24,000 nucleotides of DNA from an uncultured Atopobium sp. (GCA_963525825.1 CAURLG010000005.1:1-24000), one strand, 5' to 3'; shown: positions 1,301 to 17,827, numbered from the stretch's first letter. Made by a program: numbers and translations. Notes: generated by a model from the sequence alone, not told the origin.

Positions 1301-1942
1301 GTGGAAGTTAACGGCCTTATCGACCATACAAATTTGAAGCAGAACGCAACCGCTGAAGACATCAAGAAACTTTGCGCCGAGGCAAAGCAGTACAAGTTTG
1401 CAACTGTCGCCATCAATTCTTGCTGGGTTTCTCTGGCTCATGCCGAGCTCGAGGACTCAGGAGTTGGTATCACTTCCTGCATCGGTTTCCCTCTGGGCGC
1501 CGCTTCAACTGCAGCTAAGGTCGCCGAGGCCAAGCAGAGCGTCGCCGACGGCACAACCGAGATTGATATGGTCATCAACGGTGGCCACCTGGTCGCGGGT
1601 GACGACGACTACGTTATCGCTGATATCAAGGCTGTCGTTGAGGCCGCTGGCACCGTGCCCGTTAAGGTAATCCTGGAGTGCTGCCTGCTTGATGACGAGC
1701 AGATCGTTCGTGCTTGCAAGGATTGCATGGCTGCTGGGGCTGCGTTCGTCAAGACAAGCACCGGCTTCAGCACCGGCGGCGCAACTGTTCATGACGTCGC
1801 TCTGATGAAGCAGACTGTCGGCAACACTTGCAAGGTTAAGGCTGCTGGCGGCATCCACAATAAGGCTGACGCTGAGGCAATGGTCGCAGCGGGCGCAGAT
1901 CGCCTGGGCTGCTCCAGCGGAATCGCTATTGTCACCGAGTAG
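1301..1942 (+). CDS. deoC: Deoxyribose-phosphate aldolase
   Basis: GTG start 7 nt after AAGGAGAA. Full-length match to the DeoC pattern: IDHTNLK, ATVAINSCWV, CIGFPLGA, TEIDMVIN, VKVILE, FVKTSTGF (Schiff-base Lys), KAAGGI. Confidence 0.95.
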   Translation: MEVNGLIDHTNLKQNATAEDIKKLCAEAKQYKFATVAINSCWVSLAHAELEDSGVGITSCIGFPLGAASTAAKVAEAKQSVADGTTEIDMVINGGHLVAGDDDYVIADIKAVVEAAGTVPVKVILECCLLDDEQIVRACKDCMAAGAAFVKTSTGFSTGGATVHDVALMKQTVGNTCKVKAAGGIHNKADAEAMVAAGADRLGCSSGIAIVTE

Positions 1943-1994
1943 CTCGCTGATCAGGAGTTTTCCGGACCAACACTTCACGGATAGGTAAATGAAG

Positions 1995-2034
1995 ACGACC
2001 TCATAGCATGTGCTGCGAGGTCGTTCTTTGTTGT
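1995..2034. terminator. Stem-loop terminator shared by convergent deoC and yjjW-type gene
   Basis: ACGACCTC (1995-2002) pairs with GAGGTCGT (2017-2024), and AGCA/TGCT pair inside the loop. TCTTTGTTGT follows on the + strand, 52 nt after the deoC stop. The tail on the - strand is less T-rich. Confidence 0.55.
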
Positions 2035-2047
2035 GGAATAGTGGGGT

Positions 2048-2097
2048 GGCGAGAAACCCGTGTAAGCTGCAGCAACAATCGCGGCGAGAAACCCGTG
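2048..2097. repeat. Two tandem copies (35-bp period) of GGCGAGAAACCCGTGyrAGCTGCrGC; its core also occurs elsewhere in the window
   Basis: GGCGAGAAACCCGTG occurs at 2048-2062 and 2083-2097. The reverse-complement core GGGGTTTCTCGCCAG occurs at 11946-11960 and 18024-18038. All four copies are intergenic. Confidence 0.7.
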
Positions 2098-2193
2098 CGA
2101 GCTGCGGCCTGCACCACCTGGACGCCGTGTGCTGCTGGTGTCGCGCTTCACGCCGCGTCTGCTGCGGCTGGTATCGCGCACCCGCCGCAGCGA

Positions 2194-3138
2194 CTAGCTG
2201 ACGACAACCTCGCCAAAGCCCAGGTTGCGAGCCTGCGACTCAATCGCTTGCATGCGCTCGTCGCTTGGAGAAGGGGAGTTCTCCATCGGTCCGCGTACAC
2301 CAAAACGCCTGAACTTCATGAGACGAATACGCGTCTGCCCGACCTTCTCGCCAAGGGTTGCGGCAATGCCTTCAACTGCGTCTTCAGCGTCGTTCCAGCC
2401 TTCGGTCACGATGACGCGAACCTCTTCTAGCTTGTTTTGCTCGGCCAAAAACGCAAGGTTTTTGCGGACCGTGACGCCATTCTCGCCGGTCAGGTGCTCA
2501 AACCACTGATCGTCCCAAGCCTTGACGTCAAGCATGACGCCGCTTGAGAGATCCAGCAGATCGCGGTACTCGGTGAAGTCGATGGTGCCGTTTGAGTCGA
2601 TGAGGCAGCTCAGACCAGCTGCGTTGCAGTAGGTGAAAAGCTCGTAGAGGAAGTCGGGACGGAGCATGCATTCGCCGCCTGAGGTGGTGATTCCGCGGAT
2701 GAACGGCATGTTGGAAATGCAGCGGTCGGCCACCTCGCGTGCGCTGAGCAGCTCAATCTTTGGCGTGGATTTGTGCTGACACACCTTGATGCAGTTGTCG
2801 CAGTTGATGCAAATGGAGTTGTCCCACACAACCTTGCCGTCAGCCACGGACAGGGCGTGAGCTGGGCATGGTTTGACGCATGCCTGGCAGGAGATGCATT
2901 CCACCTGGGTCTCGGGGTTGTGGCAGTAGGCGCAGCGAATGTTGCAGCCCTGCAGGAAGACGGCAGTTCGGCTTCCTGGGCCATCTACCAGCGAGAAGGG
3001 AATGATCTTGTTGACAGGAGCAACACACCCAGTTGGATGTGCTGCTCCTGAATTGGTTGCCGGGACGCTTGCGGTTGCGGGACGCGCCGCTTCGCCTCGT
3101 GTTGCTCCCAAAATTGTTTCTGTTGCAGTACAGGTCAC
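2194..3138 (-). CDS. yjjW: Glycyl-radical enzyme activating enzyme (radical SAM), YjjW type
   Basis: Radical-SAM motif CNIRCAYCHNPET (nt 2923-2946) follows IIPFSLVDGPGSRTAVFLQGC. Two ferredoxin-like clusters are present: CISCQACVKPCP and CINCDNCIKVCQ. The gene lies 19 nt downstream of the YjjI-type gene. The GTG start gives a ~40-aa Ala/Thr/Pro-rich N-terminal extension, so the start is uncertain. Confidence 0.88.
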   Translation of the reverse strand: MTCTATETILGATRGEAARPATASVPATNSGAAHPTGCVAPVNKIIPFSLVDGPGSRTAVFLQGCNIRCAYCHNPETQVECISCQACVKPCPAHALSVADGKVVWDNSICINCDNCIKVCQHKSTPKIELLSAREVADRCISNMPFIRGITTSGGECMLRPDFLYELFTYCNAAGLSCLIDSNGTIDFTEYRDLLDLSSGVMLDVKAWDDQWFEHLTGENGVTVRKNLAFLAEQNKLEEVRVIVTEGWNDAEDAVEGIAATLGEKVGQTRIRLMKFRRFGVRGPMENSPSPSDERMQAIESQARNLGFGEVVVS

Positions 3139-3157
3139 GATTGCGCAGCTCTTCTCG

Positions 3158-4660
3158 CTAGTCGCTCATGCGAACCTTGCGCTCGCCAAGGTGGTTGGCG
3201 GTGAAGTTGCCCAGGCCGTCGTGAGCGGTGTCCTGCAGGACAACGTCGCCGGACTGGAACTTCTTCATCTCAGAGCGCTTAGCCAAGAAGCCGGTAATGC
3301 GGACCAGGTCACCCTCGGAGCTGTAGAACGAGAGATACTTGTCATCGATGGAGAATGCGGCCTTGACCACGTCAACGACAGCGTCTGGGTTGCGCTCAGC
3401 AGTTGGCTCAGCTGGGAAGATGTCGGAGACGCCACTGTTGAAGAAGCGGTGCATGCGAGCGCTGTGGCGAATGTGGTCGTAGAGATTTGCAGGCTCGTCG
3501 CCAACCTTGATGCGGACACCTGGGGTAACACCCTGCTGGTCAGAGAAGCCAGCCTGTGCGTGCAGGGTGAAGCGGCCGCCAAAGACCTCGGAGTAGACGG
3601 CGTCAAAGCTGTTGACCTGGTCGGCAATCTTGACCATGATCTGATCGGCCAGCTCATTGGCCTCGTCGTCCTTGCCGTAGGTGCGGCTGCTGTCAAGATG
3701 CAGCAGCTCAGCGACGCACTCGCTCATGCCGGCAACGCCAAACATGCCGCAGAAGCGCTCGCGAGAAATGAGACCTTCCTGAGCCAGGAAGCTGGTCTCA
3801 AAGAAGTTGGAATCCTCAACCATAAAGCGGACGCGCTCGTTCATGAAGTTCAGAACCTCGCCGGTTGCGGTTGGCAGCAGGTTGTTCATGAAGTCGTCAA
3901 CGTTGGTTGCAAGTTTTGCAAGGCCAGGGAGAAGTACGCGGCTCAAAGTGTAAGCGCCACCGCCCATAGGAAGGACGTTGTAGCAGCTTACGACGGTGTA
4001 CTCGCCAGGGTAGGTCTCTTTGTGGATGCGGTGGTTAGCAAAAGCAGGGTTGGAGCAGACCATGGTGGTCTTGACTGCCAGGCGCATGAACTCGTCAGAT
4101 GTGACCTCTGGATCGTACTTGAGAGTGAAGTTTGGAACGGCGTTCATGAGCTCGCGGTCAACCTCAAGCAGCAGTCTACCTGCGCGAGTGTCCTCTGGAC
4201 CAATGTTTGCGTGGCAATAACCACTTGCAACGGTGCGGTCGATGTGGTTCAGGAAGCGGCGCAGACGAGGCTTAATCTCTGCGTCGGTCATGCCCTCCAG
4301 GAATGGGTCGATAATCTTGTCCAACTGGCCAACGTATACAGGGCGGCTGGTGACAGAAGGAACGTTGTCGTAAAGAGCGGCAAGGCCCCAGAGCAGGTCA
4401 TCAAGGGTCTCTGGCTTGTCAAAGCGCAAAAACTCGGAACCGTTCTGAGCAAATACCTGGTAGTCAGGGCAGATGTAGCGAGGACGGTAAGGAGCGTTGC
4501 CCTCACACATGTCGTCAAGCGCGTGAGCTGCAAAAAGACGATCAAACTCAGCAGTTGTCTTAATAGGGTGTTCGGAGTTCTCGGCAGCCTGAGCCAGGTG
4601 CAGAACCTTCTGCTTGTACGAGAGGTTGTCGGAAGTGATGATGTCCATGAACTCGCTCAT
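3158..4660 (-). CDS. yjjI: YjjI-family glycine radical enzyme (DUF3029), substrate unknown
   Basis: 500 aa with AAGGAG 7 nt upstream of the ATG. Family-typical blocks are present: APYRPRYICPDYQVF, GSEFL, VPSVTSRPVYVGQLD, HANIGPED, VVSCYNVLPMGGG. The C-terminal glycyl-radical motif is GDLVRITGFLAKR (Gly codon 3290-3292). Confidence 0.9.
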   Translation of the reverse strand: MSEFMDIITSDNLSYKQKVLHLAQAAENSEHPIKTTAEFDRLFAAHALDDMCEGNAPYRPRYICPDYQVFAQNGSEFLRFDKPETLDDLLWGLAALYDNVPSVTSRPVYVGQLDKIIDPFLEGMTDAEIKPRLRRFLNHIDRTVASGYCHANIGPEDTRAGRLLLEVDRELMNAVPNFTLKYDPEVTSDEFMRLAVKTTMVCSNPAFANHRIHKETYPGEYTVVSCYNVLPMGGGAYTLSRVLLPGLAKLATNVDDFMNNLLPTATGEVLNFMNERVRFMVEDSNFFETSFLAQEGLISRERFCGMFGVAGMSECVAELLHLDSSRTYGKDDEANELADQIMVKIADQVNSFDAVYSEVFGGRFTLHAQAGFSDQQGVTPGVRIKVGDEPANLYDHIRHSARMHRFFNSGVSDIFPAEPTAERNPDAVVDVVKAAFSIDDKYLSFYSSEGDLVRITGFLAKRSEMKKFQSGDVVLQDTAHDGLGNFTANHLGERKVRMSD

Positions 4661-4808
4661 TAGTGCTCCTTACGTTTATCCTGCAAAAACAGGTTTGTGA
4701 TTGCGACGGGTACGTCGGTCGTTCCAAATTATGGTGCACCGCATTGCGCGGCGCGCTGCTTGGGGCGAGAAGAACGGTCTTGCCCAAGCGTTGTGCCAGG
4801 TACAGAGG

Positions 4809-5576
4809 TTAGTCCAGAAGGTGGGATTCTCCCTCGTGTTTCATTGCGTCGTCGAGACGCTGGAACTGCCTCTCGGTAATAACAATCTTGCCATGCTGAA
4901 CAGAAACCATGCCCCTCTCCTTAAGCTCGTCGATGCCGCGGGCAACAGTTTTTGTGCTGGTACCAATCTTGTCTGCCAGCTCTTGCCTGGTCAGACGTAC
5001 CGTAAACGGCCACTCAACAACGCCGCGGTGAATCTGATCGCGCGTGAGCTCGCTAAGCATGTACATCAGGCGCTTGGTTCCGCTCCAGGTCAGCAGGCTG
5101 CGCTCGTAGCCAGACTGACGTGTCAGATTCTTGATAATCCAGCGTGAGCGGGTGAGAAGTGCCTCAGGGTCCGAACGAATCCACTGCAGGTAGTCCTCGC
5201 GTGGAACCGAAATAAACTCGCAGCCGGAAGTTGCGGTGAGCGATCCCAGGTAAAACGGGCTCTCGCTAATAACTTCCATCTCGCCAAAAGCAACGGGCGC
5301 ACGATACTCGTCAATAACGTACGTACTACCTGCGGAATTATGCGACGTAGTGCGCACGGTACCGCGGCACAGAATGTACACGTTATCAACGCGGTCCAGC
5401 ATGTGGACAAGGGTCTGTCCGGAATTAAGACGAATCTGCCTACAATGAGAAAGACGATTAGCAGGAACGCGAGAAGCCCATTTGATGATCTTCTTGCGAA
5501 CGTCGGAATCAAGACTATCAAGGTAGGTTAGGACGTTCACACGAGACCTCGCTGTTCTTGTTTCGTAAGTCCTCAT
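4809..5576 (-). CDS. Crp/Fnr-family transcriptional regulator (cNMP-binding-like barrel plus C-terminal HTH)
   Basis: Barrel region contains VAFGEMEVISESP. The HTH is LTRQELADKIGTSTKTVARGIDELKERGMV. There is no FNR-type N-terminal Cys cluster. ATG5576 lacks an SD sequence, while in-frame GTG5540 has GAGG 8 nt upstream, so the start is uncertain. Confidence 0.85.
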   Translation of the reverse strand: MRTYETRTARSRVNVLTYLDSLDSDVRKKIIKWASRVPANRLSHCRQIRLNSGQTLVHMLDRVDNVYILCRGTVRTTSHNSAGSTYVIDEYRAPVAFGEMEVISESPFYLGSLTATSGCEFISVPREDYLQWIRSDPEALLTRSRWIIKNLTRQSGYERSLLTWSGTKRLMYMLSELTRDQIHRGVVEWPFTVRLTRQELADKIGTSTKTVARGIDELKERGMVSVQHGKIVITERQFQRLDDAMKHEGESHLLD

Positions 5577-5678
5577 TACAGGACAGTTTCGGCTTAAGTT
5601 TGAGTAATTGTAACTGCTAGCAAAAATAAAAATAAGGACTTTTGTCCACTTTTTGAGACAATTTTCTTGAACGGTATC

Positions 5679-5761
5679 GGGCTGTGATTGGGCTGCGATT
5701 AGGTTGCAGCCAACCAGCGGTCAACCCACGGTCAGCCTACGGTCAGCTCGCGGTCAAGCTG
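5679..5761. repeat. About 7.5 tandem units with strict 11-bp phasing (GGGCTGyGATT x2-3, then CGGTCArCnnn x4)
   Basis: Units read gggctgtgatt / gggctgcgatt / aggttgcagcc ... cggtcaaccca / cggtcagccta / cggtcagctcg / cggtcaagctg. The CGGTCA units occupy 5718-5761. The array lies 100-185 bp upstream of the Crp-family gene. Confidence 0.65.
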
Positions 5762-5792: not shown

Positions 5793-5838
5793 TGAACTGC
5801 CTCTCATTTCTTGGACATAAGAAATAGGAGGCAGTTCA
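5793..5838. repeat. 46-bp palindromic element, copy A (20-bp arms, 6-nt loop GGACAT)
   Basis: TGAACTGCCTCTCATTTCTT-ggacat-AAGAAATAGGAGGCAGTTCA; 18 of 20 arm positions pair. Confidence 0.8.
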
Positions 5839-6208: not shown

Positions 6209-6254
6209 TGAACTACCTCCCATTTCTTATGTCCAAGAAATGGGAGGCAGTTCA
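6209..6254. repeat. 46-bp palindromic element, copy B, inverted relative to copy A (loop ATGTCC)
   Basis: TGAACTACCTCCCATTTCTT-atgtcc-AAGAAATGGGAGGCAGTTCA; 19 of 20 arm positions pair. The loop is the reverse complement of the copy A loop. The element lies 54 nt downstream of the psuG stop. Confidence 0.8.
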
Positions 6255-6307: not shown

Positions 6308-7234
6308 TTACTTGCGGTTGCAAACCTCTGCAGCAACCTTTGCACCAAGAGCAACGTTGTTGAAGACCAGCTGAATGTTTGACTCAAGGGAGTTGTTGCC
6401 GGTAATCTCAGCAACCTTTGCCAGCAAGAATGGTGTGGACTCCTTGCCGTGGATACCGTTTGCCTCTGCCTCTGCAAGGGCCTTCTCGATAGCTGCGTCA
6501 ATGGTGTCCTTATCCATTGCATACTGCTCAGGAATTGGGTTGGTGACCAGAAGGCCGCTGTTCATGCCAATCTGCTGCTGGGTAGTAAAGATCTCTGCCA
6601 GCTCAGCAGGGGAGTCAACGCGGTAGTCAACGCTAAAGCCGCTCTTGCGGGTGTAGAACGCAGGAAGCTCCTTGGTCTGGTAACCAAGTACTGGAACACC
6701 CTTGGTCTCCAGGTACTCAAGGGTAAGGCCAAGGTCAAGAATGGACTTTGCACCAGCGCAAATGACCATAACAGGAGTCTGTGCAAGCTCCTCGAGGTCA
6801 GCGGAGATGTCCATGGTGGTCTCAGCGCCACGGTGAACGCCACCAATGCCGCCGGTTGCAAAGACGTCGATGCCCGCCATGTGAGCAATCATCATGGTAG
6901 TAGTGACGGTAGTTGCGCCGTCCTTCTTTTCAGCGATGATAACAGGGAGGTCGCGGCGGCTTACCTTAGCAACCTCGCGGCCCTTCTTGCCCAGGTAGTC
7001 AATCTCGTCAGCGGAAAGACCGGCACGCATCTGGCCGTTAATAATTGCGATAGTTGCAGGAATTGCACCGTTGTCGCGGATAATCTGCTCAACTTTCAGA
7101 GCGGTCTCGACGTTCTGTGGGTAAGGCATACCGTGAGAAATGATGGTGGACTCCAGAGCTACAACAGGCTTGTTCTGCTCAATTGCCTCTTTGACCTCGT
7201 CAGATACAACGAGAAAATCCTTCAGGTTAGACAT
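6308..7234 (-). CDS. psuG: Pseudouridine-5'-phosphate glycosidase
   Basis: GGAG 7 nt upstream of the ATG. Motifs VVALESTIISHGMPYPQN, ATGGIGGVHRG and VICAGAKSILD are typical of PsuG/YeiN (indigoidine synthase A-like family). Confidence 0.93.
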   Translation of the reverse strand: MSNLKDFLVVSDEVKEAIEQNKPVVALESTIISHGMPYPQNVETALKVEQIIRDNGAIPATIAIINGQMRAGLSADEIDYLGKKGREVAKVSRRDLPVIIAEKKDGATTVTTTMMIAHMAGIDVFATGGIGGVHRGAETTMDISADLEELAQTPVMVICAGAKSILDLGLTLEYLETKGVPVLGYQTKELPAFYTRKSGFSVDYRVDSPAELAEIFTTQQQIGMNSGLLVTNPIPEQYAMDKDTIDAAIEKALAEAEANGIHGKESTPFLLAKVAEITGNNSLESNIQLVFNNVALGAKVAAEVCNRK

Positions 7235-7289: not shown

Positions 7290-8372
7290 CTAAATACCAG
7301 CGCGCTTGATAACCTCATCAACGTTGAGTTGTTCGTTGATAGTATTCTCACCTTCAACGGCCATGGTGGAAGCAGCCAAACCTACCAGGCCGGTCTGCTC
7401 AAGTGTCATGCCTTGAGTATATGCCCAGGTAACTCCTGCCATTATGGCATCTCCTGCACCCGTCATGTTGACTAGCTTTGCAGGGAGTAGCGGCAAGAGG
7501 ATGGTCTTCTCGTGATCAGCGCAAAAAAGGCCTTTCTCACCAAGAGAGATAAATACACGCTTGAGACCTGTTGCAAGTAGCTCATGAGCTGCGGCTTCAA
7601 GGGAGGCGTTGTCAGTAATCTTAATGCCTGAAAGTGCTTCAGCCTCAAGGTGATTGGGTTTGAGCGTGTGAATTTTTCCCAGAACCTTCTTGAGCTTTTG
7701 CGCTTTGATAGAAGAAACGGGGTCGCAGAAGATAGGGCAAGTCACATTTTTGGCGATAAACTCAATCGTTTGCTGAGGTAAATTGGTGTCAATTACACAG
7801 GCCGCAGCATGCTGGATAATATCTAGACGCTCTTCAATGCGCTCAGGGGTGACATACTCGTAAATCTGCATGTCATTAATAGCTTCCTGCATCTCACCTT
7901 GCTCATCCATGATGAAGAGGTAGGTGGAAGTGGAAGCGCCTGGCACGGTAATAGATGCGTCGATGTCAATGCCGCAGTCTAGGCAACCCTCTTTGAGCTC
8001 GCGAGCACGATAGTCCTCACCAAAGGCGGTAAGTAAACGAACGTCACCGTCGAGAAGGGCCAGGTTGTGTGCAATATTTCTACCCACACCACCAAAGGAC
8101 ATGGTGACTTTACCAGGGTTAGAATCTCCCGCCACAAGGGAAGCGTTAGGGCGACCAGCAATATCCATGTTGGCGGCACCAATAACAATGACGTAGGGAC
8201 GATCGCTCAAAATATAGCGACGGCCCAAAATAGCTCCTTTTGCGGTGAGGTTGGAGATATGAACCGAAACAGAAGAGCGTGAAATACCCGCGCGTTCTGC
8301 AATTTCCTTCTGAGTAATGGAAGGCTGCTCTTTAATCCAGTTGAAAATCATCTGTTCTCTATTGGTGAGCAT
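7290..8372 (-). CDS. psuK: Pseudouridine kinase (PfkB family) with N-terminal winged-helix HTH domain
   Basis: AGGAGG 5 nt upstream of the ATG. The N-terminus NREQMIFNWIKEQPSITQKEIAERAGISRSSVSVHISNLTAKG is a DNA-binding-type HTH. The rest is a PfkB kinase (VIVIGAANMDI, NMTGAGDAIMAG). It sits directly upstream of psuG. Confidence 0.88.
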   Translation of the reverse strand: MLTNREQMIFNWIKEQPSITQKEIAERAGISRSSVSVHISNLTAKGAILGRRYILSDRPYVIVIGAANMDIAGRPNASLVAGDSNPGKVTMSFGGVGRNIAHNLALLDGDVRLLTAFGEDYRARELKEGCLDCGIDIDASITVPGASTSTYLFIMDEQGEMQEAINDMQIYEYVTPERIEERLDIIQHAAACVIDTNLPQQTIEFIAKNVTCPIFCDPVSSIKAQKLKKVLGKIHTLKPNHLEAEALSGIKITDNASLEAAAHELLATGLKRVFISLGEKGLFCADHEKTILLPLLPAKLVNMTGAGDAIMAGVTWAYTQGMTLEQTGLVGLAASTMAVEGENTINEQLNVDEVIKRAGI

Positions 8373-8405
8373 CAGACCTCCTAGCAGTAAAAATAGAATC
8401 TGACT

Positions 8406-8465
8406 AAATAGGTGCTTATATAAAATCTTCTAAACAGGTGCTTATCTTGTTTAAGCTAGTGCTTA
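8406..8465. promoter_or_regulatory. Three copies of (A/G)GTGCTTA in the psuK upstream region (candidate operator set)
   Basis: AAATAGGTGCTTAT at 8406-8419 and AAACAGGTGCTTAT at 8432-8445 match 13 of 14 with a 26-bp period. AGTGCTTA occurs at 8458-8465. The sites are 35-95 bp upstream of ATG8372 in AT-rich DNA. Confidence 0.35.
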
Positions 8466-8634: not shown

Positions 8635-8779
8635 TGTATCGTGAAAATCTCTCTAAATTGGGCATCGGTGTTATGTAACTGTAATAATATATTTAATGAA
8701 TAGTAATGACTCGTCCACATAAGTTAGTTCGCGTACGTATCGTGCGTAAATGCTTGTTTCGGACGTTTTAGGAGGTAGC

Positions 8780-9970
8780 ATGCCTAAACGTGTTTTTGTA
8801 GTTGTTCTTGATAGTTTTGGCATCGGCGAAGAGCCTGATGCAGCGGCATACGGAGACGAGGGTAGCAATACCCTTTGTGCATGCGCAACAAGTGGCGTTC
8901 TTAATATCCCAAATATGACAAAGTTGGGCCTTCTTAATATTGATGGCGCACTTGATACTGTGTATGACGTTGATCTGAAGCCAATTGAGTCTCCTGAGGG
9001 CGCATACGCTCGCATGCAGGAGAAATCCGCTGGTAAAGACACTACGGTTGGTCACTGGGAGATGGCAGGCGTCATTTCTCCAAAGAAGTTCCCAACCTAT
9101 CCTGATGGCTTCCCACAGGAGGTCATTGAGGAGTTTGAGCAGAAGACGGGCCGTAAGGTTCTCTGCAACAAACCTTACTCCGGAACTGATGTTATTAGAG
9201 ACTTTGGTAAAGAGCACGTAGAGACTGGTGCCCTGATTGTCTATACCTCAGCGGATTCTGTTTTCCAGATTGCTGCTCATGAGGACGTAGTAAGTCCCGA
9301 GAAACTCTATGAGTATTGCCGCATTGCGCGCGAGATTCTTCAGGGTGAGCACGGCGTTGCTCGCGTTATTGCTCGTCCTTTTGAGGGGGAGTGGCCATAC
9401 CAGCGCACTTCTCGCCGTCATGACTTCTCGCTTGAGCCAACGGGTCCAACTATGCTTGATCGTCTTAAAGAGAACGGCTTTGACGTTCTTTCTATTGGTA
9501 AGATTTATGACATCTTTGCTCACCGTGGCATGACTGAGTTTGAGTTCACTACCTGCAACGCAGATGGAATTCAGAAGACTATTGAGGCTACCAGCAAAGA
9601 TTTCAACGGTCTGTGCTTCACCAACCTTGTTGATACCGACATGATTTACGGTCACCGCAACGATCCTGTGGGATACTCCAACGCTCTTTCTTATTTTGAC
9701 GAGCGCATTCCTCAGATTATTGAGGGCCTTCGTGAGGATGACCTGTTCATTATTACCGCAGATCATGGCTGTGACCCGGTAACACCATCTACTGATCACT
9801 CTCGTGAGTACGTGCCACTGCTTATCACGGGTCCAAAGGTCAAGCCAAACACCAACCTTGGAACAACCGCTACATTTGCTGATATGGCCGAGACAATCCT
9901 TGATTATTTTGGCGTTGAGCAACTTGGTGTTGGAACTTCTCACCTGTCAGAGATTCTTAAGGAGAACTAA
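8780..9970 (+). CDS. deoB: Phosphopentomutase
   Basis: I prefer ATG8780, which has GGAGG 4 nt upstream, over the ORF-track start at 8750. Motifs [47 protein letters not shown] and [11 protein letters not shown] are present. Confidence 0.95.
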
Positions 9971-10680
9971 TGGCTACTACCCCAACTCCCCATAACGCTG
10001 CTGTTGAGGGCCAGATTGCTAAGACTGTCCTCATGCCAGGAGACCCTCTGCGCGCTAAGCTTCTTGCAGACACGTATCTGGAGAACGTTGAGCAGTTCAA
10101 CACCGTTCGCAACATGTTTGGTTATACCGGCACCTACAAGGGACAGCCAGTCTCCGTTATGGGTTCTGGTATGGGTATGCCTTCCATTGGTATTTATTCT
10201 TACGAGCTCTTTAATTTCTACGGAGTTGACAATATTCTCCGCATTGGTAGCGCTGGCGGCCTTGCTCCTGAGGTAAAGCTTAGAGACATTGTTATTGGCA
10301 TGTCTTCCAGCACTGATTCTAATTATCCATCACAGTACGGAATGCCTGGAACCATTGCACCTACCGCAGACTTTGGCCTGTTGAGCAAGGCTGTTGCTGG
10401 TGCAGAAAAGCTGGGTTATCCCGTTCGCGTTGGTAATATCCTGGCAAGCGACGTGTTCTATACCGTAAACAACTCGCTTCCAAAATGGGCAAGTATGGAT
10501 GTTCTTGCCGTTGAGATGGAGTCGGCAGCCCTGTATCTCAACGCCATGTACGCTCATAAGCATGCGCTTACGCTGCTAACTATCTCTGATTTGCCTCTTA
10601 CAGGAGAAGCACTTACTGCTGAAGAGCGTCAGACTAGTTTCACGCAGATGATGGAGGTTGCTCTTTCTGTTGTTGCTTAA
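9970..10680 (+). CDS. deoD: Purine nucleoside phosphorylase, DeoD type
   Basis: TAATG overlap with the deoB stop. Motifs [34 protein letters not shown] and [10 protein letters not shown] are present. Confidence 0.95.
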
Positions 10681-10843: not shown

Positions 10844-11920
10844 ATGAACAAGAACGTTTCTCGTCGTAGTTTTGTGACCGGCGCAACCGGCGCTGGCGCA
10901 TTTGCAGCACTCGCAGGTCTTGCAGGCTGCAACAACCCCAAGAAGGACGACGGCGGCCAGAAGGCATCAGGTGAGAAGAAAAAGAAGCTCACCATGGTTA
11001 CCGACACTGGTGGTGTTAACGACCAGTCCTTTAACCAGTCCGCTTGGGAGGGCATGACCGAGCTCAAGGACAAGAACGGCTGGGATGTCAGCTACCTTGA
11101 GTCCAAGCAGGATTCCGATTATGCAACCAACCTTGATAAGGCTGTTGACGCAGAGTCCGACCTTGTTTGGGGCGTTGGCTTTGCTATGGCAGACGCAACT
11201 CTTAAGGCTGCTAAGGACAATCCAAACACCCAGTTTGCTATCATCGACAACGGCAACGATTCTCAGGTTTCTAACTTCACGGGCGTTATGTTCCGCGCTC
11301 AGGAGCCTTCCTTTGTTGTTGGCTACATTGCTGCTCGCACTACAAAGACCGGCAAGGTTGGCTTTGTTGGCGGCATTTCTTCCGCACTTATCGACCAGTT
11401 TGAGTATGGTTACCGCGGTGGCGTTGCTTATGCAAACAAGGAAAAGGGCACCAACGTTGAGGTTTCTGCACAGTACGCAGAGTCCTTCTCCGATGCTGCA
11501 AAGGGTAAGGCTATTGCTAACTCCATGTACTCCGATGGTTGCGACGTTGTCTTCCACGCTGCAGGCGGCGTAGGAACCGGCGTTATTGAGGCAGCTAAGG
11601 ACGCAAATAAGCTTGCTATCGGCGTTGACCGTGACCAGGCATATCTTGCTCCAGAGAACGTTCTGACCTCCGCTCTTAAGCGCGTCAACGTTGCTATCGT
11701 TGAGATTTCCGAGAAGATCCTGAAGGACGGCCAGAAGGGCGGCACTACTGTTTCCCTGGGCGCTTCCGAGGACGCTGTCGGAATTGCTGAGGATCACCAC
11801 CTCATGGGCGAGGACACCTACAAGGCAGCTACTGATCTTCTTGACAAGATTAAGGCTGGCTCCGTTGTTCCTCCTGCAAGCAAGGACGACCTGGACAAGT
11901 ACGTTAAGTCTTTGAGCTAA
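10844..11920 (+). CDS. BMP-family (PnrA/NupN-like) nucleoside-binding lipoprotein of an ABC transporter
   Basis: AAGGAG upstream. The N-terminus has a twin-arginine-like SRRSFV followed by the lipobox LAGC (Cys29). The body matches the BMP/Med/PnrA pattern: VTDTGGVNDQSFNQSAWEG, FVGGI, VVFHAAGG, IGVDRDQ. Confidence 0.9.
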   Translation: MNKNVSRRSFVTGATGAGAFAALAGLAGCNNPKKDDGGQKASGEKKKKLTMVTDTGGVNDQSFNQSAWEGMTELKDKNGWDVSYLESKQDSDYATNLDKAVDAESDLVWGVGFAMADATLKAAKDNPNTQFAIIDNGNDSQVSNFTGVMFRAQEPSFVVGYIAARTTKTGKVGFVGGISSALIDQFEYGYRGGVAYANKEKGTNVEVSAQYAESFSDAAKGKAIANSMYSDGCDVVFHAAGGVGTGVIEAAKDANKLAIGVDRDQAYLAPENVLTSALKRVNVAIVEISEKILKDGQKGGTTVSLGASEDAVGIAEDHHLMGEDTYKAATDLLDKIKAGSVVPPASKDDLDKYVKSLS

Positions 11921-12010
11921 GCTCTGACTTAGTTTTTTGAGCCCTGGGGTTTCTCGCCAGATGGTTTTGCCGTCTGACAGGCCCAAAAGGTTGATGAGTT
12001 TGGATTTGCT

Positions 12011-12040
12011 GGTGAGGGGTGCTCTTTGGCGCTCCTCACC
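12011..12040 (+). other. Intercistronic stem-loop between the SBP and ATPase genes
   Basis: GGTGAGGGGTGC-tctttg-GCGCTCCTCACC forms a 12-bp stem including two G-U pairs. No U-tract follows. It lies 29 nt before GTG12069. Confidence 0.5.
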
Positions 12041-12068
12041 TCTAGCAAGTGTGTAAAGGAGGTGGCTC

Positions 12069-13598
12069 GTGGAAGTCAGTTCGGATTACGCTGTTCAGAT
12101 GCATGGCATTACCAAAGTTTTTGGATCGTTTAAAGCTCTTGACGCCGTAGACCTTAACGTGCGCAAGCAAACTGTCCACGCCATTTTAGGAGAGAACGGC
12201 GCAGGTAAAAGTACGCTCATGAACGTACTGTATGGCCTGTATTCTGCTGATGAGGGCGAGGTTTACCTCAACGGAGAGCGTGTATCCATTTCTGGCCCAA
12301 ACGATGCTATCGCTCACGGTATTGGTATGGTTCACCAGCACTTTATGTTGGTCGAGAACTTTACTGTTACAGAAAATATTGTTTTGGGCAACGAGGTCAC
12401 CACGGCCGGTGGCGTCCTTGATCCAAAGCGAGCTCGCGAGAAGGTCCTGGAGATTGTTGAGGAATACGGCTTTGACGTAGACCCTGACGCCAAGATTGAA
12501 GACATTTCTGTTGGTATGCAGCAGCGTGTTGAGATTTTGAAGGCCCTGTATCGCGGTGCTGATACGCTGATTCTTGATGAGCCTACGGCAGTACTTACGC
12601 CACAGGAGATTGAGAAGCTTATTCAGATCATGCATGACCTGGTAAGCAAAGGTAAAACCATTATTGTTATTACTCACAAGCTTAAAGAGATTATGTCTTC
12701 TGCTGACGAGTGCACTATTATTCGTCGCGGTAAGTACATGAGCACCGTTGATGTCTCCAAGACATCCGAGACTGAGCTTGCAACACTTATGGTAGGTAGA
12801 AACGTTAACCTGCATGTAGAAAAGAAGCCAGCAACTCCTGGTGAGGTTGTTCTTTCTATTAAGGACCTCCACGTCAAGGACGAGCGTGGCATTGAGCAGG
12901 TAAACGGTTTTAATTTGGATATTCGTGCCGGCGAGATTGTTGGTCTTGCAGGTATTGACGGCAACGGCCAGAAAGAACTTGCCGATGCCATAGACGCACT
13001 GGTCAAACCTGAGTCGGGCACCATTACCGTTAAAGGTGAAGAGATTCAGGGCACAACCCCTAAAACGGTCATTGACCATGCAGTTGCAACTATTCCTTCA
13101 GACCGCCATCGTTGGGGTCTGGTTCTGCCCTTTACCGTTGCCGAGAACATGGTGCTTGAGCGCCACAACGAGGAGACCTTTGGTAAGGGCATTGCGCTTG
13201 ACCTGGCAAAGATCAAAGAATTCTCTCAGAAGCTTATTGACGAGTTTGATATTCGTCCGGCAGAGTGCGCAGAGCATCAGGCAGTGGGACTTTCCGGCGG
13301 TAACCAGCAGAAAGTTATTATCGCCCGTGAGGTTTCTTCCAACCCAGACGTCCTCATTGCCATCCAGCCAACCCGCGGCCTTGACGTTGGTGCTATTGAG
13401 TTTGTTCACAAGGCACTTATTCGCGAGAGGGACCGTGGAGCAGCAATTTTGCTGATTTCCTTTGAGCTGGACGAGATTATGGACGTTGCCGATAAGATGG
13501 CAATTATTTACGCCGGCAAGAATGTTGGCGAGTTTGACCAAGGTACTATCACTGAAGAGCAGGCTGGCCTGCTGATGGCAGGAGGTGACGCCGAGTGA
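12069..13598 (+). CDS. ABC transporter ATP-binding protein with duplicated ABC domains (NupO/RbsA-like)
   Basis: GTG start after AGGAGG. Domain 1 has GENGAGKST (Walker A), SVGMQQRVEI and LILDEPT. Domain 2 has GIDGNGQ, LSGGNQQKVI and QPTRGLDVG. Confidence 0.93.
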   Translation: MEVSSDYAVQMHGITKVFGSFKALDAVDLNVRKQTVHAILGENGAGKSTLMNVLYGLYSADEGEVYLNGERVSISGPNDAIAHGIGMVHQHFMLVENFTVTENIVLGNEVTTAGGVLDPKRAREKVLEIVEEYGFDVDPDAKIEDISVGMQQRVEILKALYRGADTLILDEPTAVLTPQEIEKLIQIMHDLVSKGKTIIVITHKLKEIMSSADECTIIRRGKYMSTVDVSKTSETELATLMVGRNVNLHVEKKPATPGEVVLSIKDLHVKDERGIEQVNGFNLDIRAGEIVGLAGIDGNGQKELADAIDALVKPESGTITVKGEEIQGTTPKTVIDHAVATIPSDRHRWGLVLPFTVAENMVLERHNEETFGKGIALDLAKIKEFSQKLIDEFDIRPAECAEHQAVGLSGGNQQKVIIAREVSSNPDVLIAIQPTRGLDVGAIEFVHKALIRERDRGAAILLISFELDEIMDVADKMAIIYAGKNVGEFDQGTITEEQAGLLMAGGDAE

Positions 13599-14797
13599 GT
13601 ACGCTTACAAAGATAATGAGAAAACCAATTACGTCAGCAATTGTTGCTATTTTTGTTGGCCTGTTGGTTGCTTCTATTATTTTGGTTGTTGCAGGATATG
13701 ACCCTATCAGCTCGTTTGAGGCTCTTATTGGCGGCATGGTAGGTAAGCCAAAATACATTTCTAACGTCATTATTAAGGCAACACCTTTGCTCTTTACGGG
13801 TATTGCTGTTGCTTTTGCATTCCGCGTTGGCCTCTTTAACATTGGCGCTGAGGGTCAGTACATTGTAGGTACTATCCTGGCCGTTATTGTTGGCTACAGC
13901 CTTGACCTTCCTCCTGTACTGCAGATTCCTGTAGTTGTTTTGGTAGGCACCGCAGGCGGAGCAGGTATTGGCGCCATCATTGGATGGCTTAAAGCCCAGT
14001 TTGGCATCAACGAGGTTATTACCAGCATTATGTTTAACTGGATCAGCCTCTACCTCTGCAACTTTGTGGTTTCTCTTCCACAGTTCCACCAGCCAAATTC
14101 AACTTCTTCATACTCCATTAACGAGTCTGGCTATACCACACTGTTCTATGGCATGAAGAATTCCGAGGACGGTGCTGAGGCAATTCGCAATATTCCTGTT
14201 ATTGGCGACGCTATTATGCGTACCGATGTAAACATTGGTATTTTTGTTGCTATTATCGCAGCTATCTTTATTGGCTGGCTGCTTATGCGCACCAAGGTTG
14301 GTTATGAGATGCGCGCTGTTGGTTTTAACCGCGATGCTGCACAGTTTACTGGCATCAACGTTAAGAAGAACCTCACACTTTGCATGGCTATTTCTGGTGC
14401 ACTCTGCGGACTTGCAGGTGCTCTGACCATTACCGGTATTGCTCCTCACAGTATCGCAACGCTGGCAGCATTTGAGAACAACGGCTTTAACGGTCTGTCC
14501 GTTGCGTTTATCGCCAACTGCAATCCTGTGGCATGTATTCCTGCATCCTTCCTGTTTGCTGGTCTTCTTTATGGTGGCCAGACTGTTCAGCAGACGGTTG
14601 GTGCACCTTCCGAGATTATCAACATTGTTATTGGTACCATCGTGTTCTTTATGGCTCTGGGTGGCGTTATTCCAATGCTTGCCGACCGTCTTGATCACAA
14701 GCGTGCCCAGAAGGCTAAGGAAGAAGAGGCAAAGCTTGCTGCTCAAGTGAGTGATGCGTCCGACCCTTCTCAGGAGGAGGCAAACAATGCTCACTAA
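13595..14797 (+). CDS. ABC transporter permease (nucleoside/sugar type, NupP-like)
   Basis: GTGA overlap with the ATPase stop. The protein is polytopic and hydrophobic (FNIGAEGQY, MRAVGFN), as in BMP-associated permeases. Confidence 0.9.
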   Translation: MSTLTKIMRKPITSAIVAIFVGLLVASIILVVAGYDPISSFEALIGGMVGKPKYISNVIIKATPLLFTGIAVAFAFRVGLFNIGAEGQYIVGTILAVIVGYSLDLPPVLQIPVVVLVGTAGGAGIGAIIGWLKAQFGINEVITSIMFNWISLYLCNFVVSLPQFHQPNSTSSYSINESGYTTLFYGMKNSEDGAEAIRNIPVIGDAIMRTDVNIGIFVAIIAAIFIGWLLMRTKVGYEMRAVGFNRDAAQFTGINVKKNLTLCMAISGALCGLAGALTITGIAPHSIATLAAFENNGFNGLSVAFIANCNPVACIPASFLFAGLLYGGQTVQQTVGAPSEIINIVIGTIVFFMALGGVIPMLADRLDHKRAQKAKEEEAKLAAQVSDASDPSQEEANNAH

Positions 14798-15710
14798 CCT
14801 GATTCTTCTTGTTTCCGTTACCCTCATGTATTCGACACCTCTTATTTTTGGTGCTCTGGGCGGCGTTGTCTCCGAGCGCTCCGGTGTTGTCAACATTGGT
14901 ATTGAGGGCATGATGGGCGTTGGTGCCTTTGCAGGCGTTGCGGGCAGCTACCTCACCGGAAACCCTTGGATTGGCTTCCTTTGTGCAGGTATTGCAGGCG
15001 GTCTTATTGCACTTCTGCACGCGATGGCATCTATTACGTTTAACGCTGACCAGACAGTTTCTGGTGTTGCAATTAACCTGCTGGCACCTGGCATTGCTCT
15101 GTTTGCCTGCCGTCTTTTGTTTGATGGCGCTGCAATGTCTCCAGCAGTTAATAAGCTGCCAAAGCTCTTTGGCGAGGGTGCCTTTAACGACACACCTTAT
15201 TCCAGCTTGAACGTAGACATTACCGTGGTACTTGCACTTTTAACCGCCCTTCTCGTCTGGTTTGTGCTTTACCGTACCAAGTGGGGCCTGCGTATTCGCT
15301 CCGTTGGCGAGCATCCACACGCATCCGAGACACTGGGCATTAGCGTTCGTAAGACTCGCTACCTCTGCGTTATTGTTTCTGGTGTTCTTGCAGGATTTGG
15401 TGGCGCTTCTGTAACGCTGGCAATTATTTCTCAGTTCACTCAGACCGCTATTTCTGGTCAGGGCTTTATTGCACTGGCTGCGGTTATCTTTGGTAAGTGG
15501 AAGCCTCTGAACACCTATGCAGCTTGCCTGCTCTTTGGCTTTACTCAGGCACTTGCAATTCTTCTTGGTGGCGGCGCAACTCCAATTCCAAGCCAGATCA
15601 TTGCAATGCTTCCTTACTTCATCACCATCATTACGCTGGTCCTCTTTGTTGGTAAGTCCGTTGCGCCTAAGGCAGACGGTGTGCCATACATCAAGGGAAG
15701 TCGTGCATAA
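14787..15710 (+). CDS. ABC transporter permease (NupQ-like)
   Basis: I prefer ATG14787, which has GGAGGAGG 6 nt upstream, over the ORF-track start at 14751. It overlaps the preceding gene by 11 nt. Motifs GVVNIGIEGMM and IRSVGEHP are present. Confidence 0.9.
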   Translation: MLTNLILLVSVTLMYSTPLIFGALGGVVSERSGVVNIGIEGMMGVGAFAGVAGSYLTGNPWIGFLCAGIAGGLIALLHAMASITFNADQTVSGVAINLLAPGIALFACRLLFDGAAMSPAVNKLPKLFGEGAFNDTPYSSLNVDITVVLALLTALLVWFVLYRTKWGLRIRSVGEHPHASETLGISVRKTRYLCVIVSGVLAGFGGASVTLAIISQFTQTAISGQGFIALAAVIFGKWKPLNTYAACLLFGFTQALAILLGGGATPIPSQIIAMLPYFITIITLVLFVGKSVAPKADGVPYIKGSRA

Positions 15711-16273
15711 TGGCCGGGGTAGAGGGTTCTTGTCACGTTTCTAACGAGGCTCTTGTTCAGCTTGCTATTGAGGCGCGCAACCATGCCTATGTACCATACT
15801 CTCACTATGCTGTTGGAGCTGCACTGTTGTGCTCTGACGGCACGGTGTACGGAGGTGCCAACCTAGAAAACGCTGCGTACACGCCTTCTAACTGCGCCGA
15901 GCGTACGGCGTTTTTCCGCGCAGTGTTTGAGGGTCGCAGGGATTTTGTGGCCATTGCGGTTGTTGGTGGTCCTGAGGGAGAGGCTCCAACAGCTTGGTGC
16001 ACTCCTTGTGGTGTATGCAGGCAGGTTATTCGCGAGTGGTGCGATCCTGCTACATTCCGTATTGTGTTAGGCAAGGCAGATGCAGCTCCTCGCGAGTATC
16101 TGCTCCAGGACATCTTGCCTATGGGATTTGGTCCCGAGGATCTGGGCGAGTCCAGTCCTGCTGGCGCATCGGGTGACGACGCCGTGAAGGGCGCCGCGGG
16201 CGAGCACGGCGCGGGCGGCCACGAGCACAGCTGTGGCTGCGGGTGCGGCGAGCACGGCGGAGGCAACCAGTAG
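15710..16273 (+). CDS. cdd: Cytidine deaminase (small tetrameric type) with ~40-aa Gly/His/Cys-rich C-terminal extension
   Basis: TAATG overlap with the permease stop. Zinc motifs CAERTAFF and PCGVCRQV are present. The canonical end ILPMGFGPEDL is followed by GESSPAGASGDDAVKGAAGEHGAGGHEHSCGCGCGEHGGGNQ. Confidence 0.9.
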   Translation: MAGVEGSCHVSNEALVQLAIEARNHAYVPYSHYAVGAALLCSDGTVYGGANLENAAYTPSNCAERTAFFRAVFEGRRDFVAIAVVGGPEGEAPTAWCTPCGVCRQVIREWCDPATFRIVLGKADAAPREYLLQDILPMGFGPEDLGESSPAGASGDDAVKGAAGEHGAGGHEHSCGCGCGEHGGGNQ

Positions 16274-16501: not shown

Positions 16502-17827
16502 ATGCGCATGTACGACGTGATTGAAAAGAAGCGCGATGGCGGCGAGCTTACCGACGCCGAGATTGACTACTTTGTCTCGGGCTATGTAGCTGGGGATATT
16601 CCCGATTATCAGGCTTCCGCGCTTGCGATGGCCATCTTCTACAAGGGTATGACCGCGCACGAGACAGCTCACCTGACCATGGCAATGGCAGAGTCTGGCG
16701 ACATGATGGACCTCTCGGCAATCCCTGGTATCAAGGTTGATAAACACTCTACCGGCGGTGTTGGCGATAAAACCACGCTGGTTGTTGGCCCACTTGTTGC
16801 ATCTCTTGGCGTAAAGGTTGCCAAGATGAGTGGCCGCGGCTTGGGCCATACGGGCGGTACGCTGGATAAACTTGAGGCAATTCCGGGACTTTCCATTGAG
16901 ATTTCCGAGCCAGATTTCTTCAAGCAGGTCTCCGAGATTGGCGTTGCCGTCGCAGGTCAGACGGGCAATCTTGTTCCAGCTGACAAGAAGCTTTATGCGC
17001 TTCGCGACGTTACCGCAACGGTTGATTCGGTGCCTCTGATTGCATCGAGCATCATGAGCAAGAAGATCGCTTCCGGTTCCGACTGCATTTTGCTGGACGT
17101 CAAGTGCGGTTCCGGCGCCTTCATGAAGAACGTCGACTCCGCAATTGAGCTGGCAGATGCTATGGTTTCCATTGGCGAGCACGTCGGCCGTACCACCGCA
17201 GCTCTGATTACTGGCATGGATCGCCCTCTTGGCAAAAACGTGGGCAATTCCCTCGAGGTCATTGAGGCAGTGGCTACGCTTAAGGGTGAGGGTCCTGAAG
17301 ATTTGACCGACGTTTGCGTTGAGCTTGCTGCAAACATGCTTAACCTCGCAGGTAAGGGAAGCGTTGAGGACTGCCGTAAGCTGGCTCGCCAGCAGATTGC
17401 AAACGGCGAGGGCTTGGCTAAGCTGGCACAGATGGTCAAGGCTCAGGGCGGCACCGACGAGGTCATCTTTGACACCACCAAGTTTGAAGCTGCGCCATTC
17501 CGCCGCGACATTGTGGCCGAGACCAGCGGATATATCACTTCTATGAACGCCGAGCTGGTGGGCATTTCCTCTGTTGCTTTGGGCGCCGGTCGCGAGAAGA
17601 AGGGCGATCCGATTGACCCAGCAGCAGGTATTATCCTTGAGCGCAAGACCGGCGATTATGTCGAGAAGGGCGATGTTATTGCAACGCTTCTGACCGGCGA
17701 CGAAAGCCGTCTTGACGAGGGCGAGCGCATCTTCCGCGAGGCTCTGGTCTTTGGCGAGAGTGCCCCTGAGCTGGAGCCGCTGTTCTTTGCACGTGTCTCC
17801 AAGGACGGCGTCGAGCGCTTCGCATAA
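16502..17827 (+). CDS. pdp: Pyrimidine-nucleoside (thymidine) phosphorylase
   Basis: AGAGG 8 nt upstream. Motifs MRMYDVIEKKRDG, IPDYQASALAMAI, KHSTGGVGDKTTL and SGRGLGHTGGTLDKLE are present. Pdp and DeoA specificity cannot be distinguished by eye. Confidence 0.94.
   Translation: MRMYDVIEKKRDGGELTDAEIDYFVSGYVAGDIPDYQASALAMAIFYKGMTAHETAHLTMAMAESGDMMDLSAIPGIKVDKHSTGGVGDKTTLVVGPLVASLGVKVAKMSGRGLGHTGGTLDKLEAIPGLSIEISEPDFFKQVSEIGVAVAGQTGNLVPADKKLYALRDVTATVDSVPLIASSIMSKKIASGSDCILLDVKCGSGAFMKNVDSAIELADAMVSIGEHVGRTTAALITGMDRPLGKNVGNSLEVIEAVATLKGEGPEDLTDVCVELAANMLNLAGKGSVEDCRKLARQQIANGEGLAKLAQMVKAQGGTDEVIFDTTKFEAAPFRRDIVAETSGYITSMNAELVGISSVALGAGREKKGDPIDPAAGIILERKTGDYVEKGDVIATLLTGDESRLDEGERIFREALVFGESAPELEPLFFARVSKDGVERFA

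Follow-up and report, generated by a model that had tools for sequence, protein, structure and literature searches.

A Crp-family regulator and the uncharacterized glycyl-radical pair YjjI/YjjW in a nucleoside-catabolism locus of Atopobium

The glycyl-radical enzyme YjjI and its activase YjjW, an oxygen-sensitive pair, are very probably linked to nucleoside catabolism, as judged from the genes that surround them in a 24,000-nt stretch of DNA from an uncultured Atopobium sp. (GCA_963525825.1, CAURLG010000005.1:1-24000; hereafter the window) and in related loci. In the window, yjjI and yjjW follow a gene for a Crp/Fnr-family regulator, called crp here. We put the probability at roughly one half that crp-yjjI-yjjW forms an anaerobic accessory module of nucleoside catabolism, in which nucleosides taken up by the cell, chiefly those of pyrimidines, would undergo a radical step at their ribosyl part. 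Open reading frames (ORFs) of the window were assigned via profile searches (Pfam, NCBIfam), and the closest genomes belong to Atopobium spp., class Coriobacteriia, phylum Actinomycetota. A preliminary description of this DNA had placed the trio between deoC and psuG/psuK, which the coordinates bear out, with deoC convergent to yjjW (Table 1).

Gene neighborhoods of yjjI across lineages

One genome per GTDB species was scanned, which yielded 577 relatives, and the closest 80 loci (at least 47% identity to the window YjjI) were analyzed. These were searched with the proteins of the window and the E. coli Deo proteins; dereplication at 90% YjjI identity, with at least 8 kb of sequence, gave 46 lineages. 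The neighborhood-enrichment check proposed in the preliminary description was run on this set. Thirty-six of the 46 lineages carry at least one nucleoside gene inside 10 kb, and in 20 of 46 nucleoside genes belong to the co-directional run of yjjI itself, with gaps of less than 300 bp. A YjjW-family gene adjoins yjjI in 43 of 46. The neighbors are Bmp-type ABC transporters (28/46), uridine phosphorylase (udp, TIGR01718; 15/46), deoB (13/46), psuK (11/46), deoD (9-10/46), cdd (9/46), deoC and psuG (8/46 each), and pdp (2/46).

At least six distinct gene orders occur around yjjIW. In Coriobacteriia the order is psuK-psuG-crp-yjjI-yjjW, with a divergent deoB-deoD-bmp operon and a convergent deoC, and in Lachnospiraceae yjjI-yjjW-bmp-ABC-crp-udp-deoD-cdd lie on one strand. 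Peptoniphilaceae and Filifactor have yjjI-yjjW-cdd-bmp-ABC-udp, with or without psuKG after it, Anaerotruncus has cdd-bmp-ABC-psuKG as a divergent unit, and a Spirochaete and several Clostridia have udp followed by bmp-ABC-(gntR)-yjjI-yjjW. Three non-homologous families of nucleoside transporters adjoin yjjIW, namely Bmp-ABC, NupG, and NupC: a NupG-type nucleoside:H+ symporter follows yjjW in Neobacillus, and a NupC/CNT transporter flanks yjjW in Edwardsiella, where deoCABD lies on the other side. In loci L031-L034, an ECF transporter, which may or may not carry nucleosides, precedes udp beside yjjIW. Given the effect size and the independent architectures, chance or simple inherited synteny is unlikely as the cause of the link.

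The functional link to nucleoside or (deoxy)ribose catabolism, which had been argued from the deoC adjacency in Atopobium and E. coli, is thus upheld by the frequency of nucleoside neighbors, the shared transcriptional direction, the varied gene orders, and the transporter families. The emphasis on deoC is not: deoC as the main partner is contradicted by its presence in just 8 lineages, and Bmp-ABC transporters and pyrimidine-specific enzymes dominate instead.

Pyrimidine-specific genes (udp, cdd, pdp, psuGK) were found in 28 of 46 lineages and purine-only sets in one, and 9 of the 10 lineages with the purine-specific deoD also have pyrimidine genes. YjjI might act on the pyrimidine base, uracil or a derivative, and open the use or detoxification of uracil with a step that needs no oxygen; uracil is set free by Udp, by Cdd and Udp in succession, by Pdp, and by PsuG, and in Coriobacteriia and several Firmicutes crp-yjjI comes right after psuG/psuK. 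We consider such a base-directed reaction improbable, as ring-opening or amidohydrolase genes do not recur among the conserved neighbors, the closest fold is that of a ribose-directed enzyme (see below), and yjjIW of both E. coli and Edwardsiella adjoins the general deoCABD set, purine deoD included.

A PF00756 “putative esterase” of ~264 amino acids (aa) recurs beside yjjIW in a Firmicute subgroup (L036, L041, L044, L049 at 12364-13158, and L055; L038 at 10703-11494). In these loci the gene directly upstream of yjjI mostly encodes a GntR/FCD regulator, not Crp, and the esterase may be an extra pathway step.

YjjI and YjjW: family, motifs, and predicted fold

The 500-aa protein with the C-terminal glycyl-radical motif DLVRITGFLAKR is present as it had been quoted and belongs to the YjjI family by both profile databases (Table 1). 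The motif R-[VI]-x-G-[YF] appears as R454-I-T-G457-F. Among 37 aligned family members, some of them enterobacterial and 36-40% identical to the window protein, ~75 positions are invariant, including S225-C226-x-N228, H150-A-N152, R454-x-T456-G457, and many Arg and His residues.

An AlphaFold2 model of YjjI (predicted local distance difference test, 91.9; predicted template modeling score, 0.91) places C226 at the tip of a β-hairpin (strands 221-223 and 229-231) and G457 at that of a second hairpin, as would be expected for the Cys and Gly loops. The predicted fold is the ten-stranded α/β barrel of glycyl-radical enzymes, and all 50 PDB matches listed by Foldseek belong to this superfamily. By sequence, a search of the PDB matched no solved structure, the best being NrdD with E = 0.05. 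A profile search of 1.84 billion representative proteins returned 680 YjjI matches, of which ~20 were full-length clusters at 50% identity, which points to a small and tight family.

Two unusual YjjI arrangements were seen. On an Oscillospiraceae contig (L079), crp is followed by two tandem YjjI paralogs on either side of one yjjW (7632-9104, 9131-9952, and 10001-11476), an arrangement that suggests a duplication and perhaps a divergence of substrates in the family. On a 2.9-kb contig, a 574-aa NCBI protein (P0124) joins YjjI-like and DeoC Pfam domains; it is probably an assembly or gene-calling artifact because yjjI and deoC are divergent in E. coli.

The activase ORF begins 19 nt past the yjjI stop codon, and both this spacing and the motifs named in the preliminary description are confirmed: the radical S-adenosylmethionine (SAM) motif CX3CX2C (CNIRCAYC) and two ferredoxin-type CX2CX2CX3C clusters, CISCQACVKPCP and CINCDNCIKVCQ. 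It is assigned to the YjjW family by TIGR04041 (Table 1), and its best non-YjjW NCBIfam match is the hydroxyproline-dehydratase activase. The first ~40 residues of the annotated YjjW (3019-3138) fall outside the family model, and length varies between close strains, so the start codon is uncertain. In a divergent clade (L089), the activase beside yjjI (9557-10309) has just 250 aa and no ferredoxin-domain match on record.

YjjI is homologous to the NrdD barrel and lacks most hallmarks of a ribonucleotide reductase

Against the PDB, the top 21 Foldseek matches of the YjjI model are all NrdD, the class III ribonucleotide reductase (RNR), with E values down to 7e-17, template modeling scores of 0.65-0.75 normalized to the query, and 11-14% sequence identity. 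Enzymes resembling pyruvate formate-lyase (PFL-like) form a second tier close behind, e.g., PflD with E = 1.6e-13. In a profile-profile comparison (hhalign), YjjI 34-472 aligned with NrdD 145-694 over 430 columns at 94% probability, with RITG457 of YjjI opposite RVCG681 of NrdD and the Cys-loop region near NrdD M382-G-C384. The NrdD profile was thin (5 sequences; the NrdD homologs listed are all at least 86% identical), which makes single-residue mapping only moderately reliable, and the YjjI profile set against the lone E. coli NrdD sequence gave just 7% probability.

Most of the RNR-defining features that were looked for are missing from YjjI. The NRDD domain PF13597 scored 21.9 bits, under its gathering threshold of 26.2, and no NrdD model of NCBIfam matched. 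There was no match to the ATP cone (PF03477), and the alignment begins only at NrdD residue 145. The four C-terminal Zn-ribbon cysteines of NrdD (C644, C647, C662, and C665) face a Cys-free segment of YjjI (residues ~400-456). In the same alignment to the thin profile, the position of the second RNR cysteine, E. coli NrdD C175, which like Met382 is needed for reduction, is occupied by the invariant Y62. As for Met382, V/I-S precede C226, without a Met two positions ahead of the putative thiyl Cys, local alignment confidence being limited here.

These results bear on the proposal that YjjI is a specialized or back-up anaerobic RNR, for which the NrdD structures as nearest relatives, the profile-profile match, and the weak PF13597 match would speak. 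It is highly improbable, given the subthreshold domain score, the absence of ATP cone and Zn-ribbon cysteines, the Tyr in place of C175, and the lack of a Met two before the thiyl Cys. Furthermore, the partner activase has a ferredoxin domain, unlike NrdG, and E. coli and Neobacillus have separate nrdDG genes alongside yjjIW. YjjI is thus homologous to the NrdD barrel and fails most of the RNR-defining features tested; the evidence that it is an RNR-derived enzyme yet not an RNR is new here.

The Crp-family regulator and its predicted operator

As described earlier, a Crp/Fnr-family regulator lacking the FNR Cys cluster is encoded directly upstream of yjjI, and both of its domains, PF00027 and PF13545, are confirmed. 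In 21 of 46 lineages the gene immediately before yjjI encodes an orthologue of this regulator. Across 22 orthologues no FNR-type N-terminal Fe-S Cys cluster was found; they share an FGE.E motif, a single conserved Cys, and the recognition helix S-x-K-T-V-x-R. In the window, crp probably starts at GTG 5540 rather than at 5576, because of a GAGG Shine-Dalgarno sequence and an N-terminus that matches the homologs.

The dyad CGACG-GGTA-CGTCG upstream of yjjI had been put forward as a possible regulator site. It does exist, but it is probably not the Crp-family operator and was rejected as such, as the dyad is confined to the Atopobium species group: neither L018, at 92% YjjI identity, nor any other taxon has it. 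With up to one mismatch, a 5+5 dyad search gave three matches against 0.78 expected, a number reached in 6 of 100 shuffles and by itself not above chance, and an inverted-repeat search with seed 6 in 4661-4808 found none, the arms being only 5 bp. The crp-yjjI spacing is just 30-100 nt in most taxa without the dyad. Within the Atopobium group, the dyad is kept in all loci while the surrounding sequence varies, and the one strain that alters a spacer base leaves both arms intact; it may be a hairpin in the 5' untranslated region or a local protein site.

A different palindrome, GGACA-N2-TGTCC, was found in 12 of 26 regions upstream of Crp-family genes, with at most 3 in shuffled sequences. Allowing one mismatch and up to 260 nt upstream of crp or yjjI, the box occurs in 17 of 22 dereplicated regulator-bearing lineages. 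Its density is 19 matches in 17.9 kb against 22 in 791 kb, a 38-fold enrichment (Poisson P ~9e-24), and perfect copies number 10 within the upstream regions and 2 outside. The box is also present upstream of deoB (L032, L033, and L076) and of a sulfatase-bmp-ABC-deoC operon (L081), and a perfect copy lies ~90 nt upstream of the PF00756 esterase in L038. The only GGAC-N4-GTCC in the window is at 5636-5647, upstream of crp. We regard this palindrome as the predicted operator of the Crp-family regulator and as better supported than the dyad. The fragment 4661-4808, proposed earlier for binding assays with the regulator, would therefore miss the predicted operator. If the hexamer TACAAT at 5607-5612 served as a -10 element, the operator center would fall at about -41.5, the geometry of a class II activator.

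Two repeats lie further upstream. A 46-bp palindrome (TGAACTNCCTCCCATTTCTT, 6 nt, AAGAAATGGGAGGCAGTTCA) is present twice, at 5793-5838 and 6209-6254, 416 bp apart, and the copies flank an AT-rich segment in the psuG-crp spacer. Related Atopobium loci have one or two copies, matching a ~400-bp length polymorphism; the pair could have arisen by duplication of the psuKG terminator along with insertion of a segment, or it could belong to a small element that moves or recombines. In addition, an 11-bp unit with a TGACCG core on the minus strand is repeated 3.6 times in tandem upstream of crp at 5718-5757 (and 5679-5700) with the phasing of one helical turn and may be a binding array for another regulator.

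A proposed reaction and the points that weigh against it

In the proposed mechanism, the Crp-family regulator would bind some ligand and activate the operon from a class II-type promoter. YjjW would use SAM to generate a radical on Gly457, which would be passed to Cys226 to give a thiyl radical. By analogy to RNR, the thiyl radical would remove a ring hydrogen from the ribosyl group of an imported nucleoside, or from the ribose phosphate that it yields, and this abstraction would drive cleavage of the neighboring (2') C-O bond. Because YjjI is without the second NrdD cysteine, canonical RNR chemistry would be less likely than a redox-neutral elimination or a reduction that draws on some other donor. 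The resulting 2-deoxy-pentose derivative could enter the route of phosphorylase, DeoB, and DeoC and end as glyceraldehyde-3-phosphate and acetaldehyde. This specific 2'-C-O chemistry on the sugar is a tentative proposal, possible if doubtful, and draws on the RNR analogy.

RNR-type chemistry eliminates 2' substituents. An elimination of this type could also serve to strip the modification from an atypical or modified nucleoside that arises in RNA turnover (e.g., 2'-O-methylated or acylated), with ordinary phosphorylases finishing the breakdown. The locus already handles pseudouridine, a product of RNA modification, through psuGK, and the esterase that recurs by yjjIW has the predicted operator upstream in L038. 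This possibility is inferred from context, the esterase is confined to one subgroup, and no sequence feature identifies a modified substrate; we regard it as rather unlikely.

Several points weigh against the module as proposed. That the neighborhood link is family-wide holds for most of the sampled relatives and not for all: four Bacteroidales loci have no nucleoside link, their yjjIW neighbors being housekeeping genes (ribBA, pgi, gpsA, aminoacyl-tRNA synthetase, and NlpC/P60), Proteus yjjIW lacks deo genes and any nucleoside link, two divergent clades have no nucleoside genes near yjjIW, and one further clade is marginal, with a Bmp-type ABC operon 6 kb away. The closest-80 sample overweights Bacillota and Coriobacteriia, the lineages are not phylogenetically independent, and the chance expectation, that any one gene family falls into a given 20-kb window in ~1-4% of genomes, was estimated rather than measured with a control. 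The deo, cdd, udp, and transporter genes cluster together anyway and do not identify the metabolite of YjjI, and the pyrimidine bias fits a base-directed reaction equally well. The likeness to NrdD is just slightly better than that to the PFL-like enzymes, and the placement of Y62 at C175 depends on the five-sequence profile.

The loci without nucleoside genes would also fit genomic hitch-hiking, with YjjI acting in another anaerobic metabolism such as that of nitrate or nitrogen; yjjI falls in an FNR/NarL-type bicluster with narG, from which “nitrogen metabolism” was proposed on the basis of co-expression (PMC3228777). Such an explanation is very unlikely. The link spans 36 of 46 lineages, several independent gene orders, and three non-homologous transporter families, the predicted operator is common to deoB and a transporter operon, and the nar co-expression is explained by shared FNR control (PMC3688515).

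Among other divergent relatives, the gene just upstream of yjjI in one very divergent clade encodes a Bmp-type permease. In another clade (L090, 10496-12572), genes for an MFS transporter and a glycerophosphodiester phosphodiesterase come after yjjIW and one for a HAD phosphatase precedes it, a context that is not obviously nucleoside-related.

Gene map of the window

The nucleoside locus is bigger than the preliminary description had stated, as it also includes deoB, deoD, a Bmp/ABC transporter, cdd, and pdp and reaches 17827 (Table 1). The shared terminator described for the convergent deoC and yjjW was in part borne out: the convergence is real, and in place of a single terminator the 251-bp gap holds three or more GC-rich hairpins. 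That at 1995-2024 has its T-rich tail on the plus strand, and a separate one follows yjjW; the whole gap has a fold z-score of -3.1. A consensus promoter and terminator scan gave nothing useful in this gap or upstream of yjjI or crp, and an Rfam search of the whole window found no RNA family.

Table 1. Features of the Atopobium window; positions are counted from its first nucleotide
Feature	Position	Strand	Support or remark
deoC, deoxyribose-phosphate aldolase	1301..1942	+	TIGR00126 249 bits (cutoff 117); PF01791
Hairpin, 14-nt arms, then TCTTTGTTGT	1995..2024	+ (tail)	Likely deoC terminator, possibly bidirectional
GC-rich hairpin	2161..2191		Directly past yjjW stop codon
yjjW, radical-SAM glycyl-radical activase	2194..3138	-	TIGR04041 387 bits (cutoff 250); Radical_SAM and Fer4 matches
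yjjI, YjjI-family glycyl-radical enzyme, 500 aa	3158..4660	-	TIGR04040 604 bits (cutoff 498.3); PF11230 705 bits (cutoff 23)
Dyad CGACG-N4-CGTCG (spacer GGTA)	4704..4717		44 nt upstream of yjjI ATG
crp, Crp/Fnr-family regulator	4809..5576	-	PF00027 (cNMP_binding) 44 bits; PF13545 (HTH_Crp_2) 44 bits
Candidate -10 hexamer TACAAT	5607..5612	-	Read from sequence; consensus promoter scan did not flag it
Predicted operator GGAC-N4-GTCC	5636..5647		Window copy of cross-phylum palindrome aaGGACA-N2-TGTCCtt
psuG, pseudouridine-5'-phosphate glycosidase	6308..7234	-	PF04227 461 bits
psuK-like PfkB kinase with N-terminal helix-turn-helix (HTH)	7290..8372	-	PF00294 and HTH; NF007355 pseudouridine kinase 244 bits, below its cutoff
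deoB, phosphopentomutase	8750..9970	+	NF003766 521 bits
deoD, purine-nucleoside phosphorylase	9970..10680	+	NF004489 319 bits; TIGR00107 283 bits
Bmp/PnrA-type ABC transporter	10844..15710	+	PF02608, PF00005, PF02653
 binding protein	10844..11920	+
 ATPase	12069..13598	+
 permeases	13595..14797 and 14751..15710	+
cdd, cytidine deaminase	15710..16273	+	PF00383, PF08211
pdp, pyrimidine-nucleoside phosphorylase	16502..17827	+	NF004747 585 bits (cutoff 559)

In the psuK-like kinase, the HTH fused N-terminally to PfkB is of the winged-helix/MarR type, and the protein may also regulate the psu genes. A 342-aa ORF adjoining deoC (181-1209, plus strand) has no Pfam or NCBIfam match and is found in the same position, at 86-95% identity, in Atopobium-group loci. 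Beyond pdp, a TetR_C/HAD-like ORF (18301-19110, plus strand) precedes a 1596-aa protein (19067-23857, plus strand) with two BcrAD_BadFG ATPase domains and DUF2229, of the CoA-enzyme activase type, which appears unrelated to the nucleoside genes.

Status of the family and significance

The YjjI/YjjW family itself is known but uncharacterized. The orphan status claimed for it holds in the literature searched to August 2026, in which no paper assigning a function to YjjI or linking it to nucleosides was found, the sole proposal being nitrogen metabolism. NCBIfam (June 2026) types TIGR04040 and TIGR04041 as hypothetical equivalogs, a June 2026 review of the glycyl-radical superfamily makes no mention of YjjI (PMC13450708), and a preprint of August 2026 calls it uncharacterized and reports that Gly465 of YjjI was labeled by a radical-trapping probe in living E. 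coli (bioRxiv 10.64898/2026.08.13.742689).

What is new is a family-wide nucleoside context for YjjI in place of a two-genome anecdote, together with a predicted regulator-operator pair that is usable as a reporter for the inducer. The context also gives a substrate short list: uridine, cytidine, pseudouridine and their products, ribose-1-phosphate, ribose-5-phosphate, uracil, and modified nucleosides. The chemistry of YjjI is predicted not to be canonical ribonucleotide reduction. As the family is found in oral and gut anaerobes and in enterobacteria, an anaerobic route for RNA-derived nucleosides, if YjjI does open one, would bear on nutrient use in host-associated communities.

All known glycyl-radical enzymes besides class III RNR are “PFL-like” (PMC13450708). 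It is conceivable, though unlikely, that YjjI founds a third functional branch, RNR-derived and using radical chemistry to break the 2'-C-O bond of free ribonucleosides (mainly those of pyrimidines) or of ribose phosphates, to give 2-deoxy (or 2-deoxy-3-keto) pentoses that DeoC-type cleavage would split to C3 and C2 products. If true, RNA-derived ribose could be burned anaerobically with no need for the pentose-phosphate pathway, and a dedicated sensor of the Crp family would turn this route on.

Comparison with known systems

YjjI shares with class III RNR the glycyl-radical barrel fold, and both have a nucleoside or nucleotide context. YjjI is shorter, however, at ~500 aa against 600-712 for NrdD, and it coexists with genuine nrdDG and clusters with catabolic rather than biosynthetic genes. 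The activases differ as well: YjjW has two extra ferredoxin-type motifs and Fer4 matches, whereas NrdG has no ferredoxin domain, the RNR activase holding only the radical-SAM domain (PMC13450708).

With the PFL-like 1,2-eliminases (HypD, propanediol dehydratase, CutC, and IslA), YjjI has in common an activase of the ferredoxin-domain type paired with the catalytic subunit, one (in YjjI, predicted) catalytic Cys, a role in catabolism that is probable for YjjI, and genes that often cluster with those of substrate transporters. Its Cys loop is S-C-Y-N, in contrast to G-C-x-E in these enzymes, and YjjI is ~300 residues shorter; neither PF02901 nor PF01228 matched the window YjjI at E <= 1e-3.

Crp/Fnr-family regulators can have 14-bp boxes with a 5-N4-5 layout, as in TTGAT-N4-ATCAA of FNR. 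The predicted window box AGGAC-N4-GTCCT is likewise palindromic and is centered near -41.5 of the candidate promoter, but its half-site sequence differs from TTGAT, and the regulator, unlike FNR, is without the Fe-S Cys cluster.

A further known counterpart is yjjI-yjjW of E. coli K-12 (b4380-b4379), of the same families at 39% identity and with deoC directly beside in both. The adjacency of the E. coli genes to deoCABD, given in the preliminary description, is correct; the orientation differs, being divergent with a 257-bp gap in E. coli and convergent in the window. Crp/Fnr-family control, predicted for the window, is a further likeness. In E. coli it involves FNR and CRP: a list of operons that bind FNR and depend on it for anaerobic expression includes yjjI (PMC3688515), and CRP peaks in chromatin immunoprecipitation lie within yjjI and in the yjjI/deoC spacer (PMC4287617). 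The E. coli pair has no dedicated regulator gene, whereas the window locus has its own Crp-family regulator and a predicted operator.

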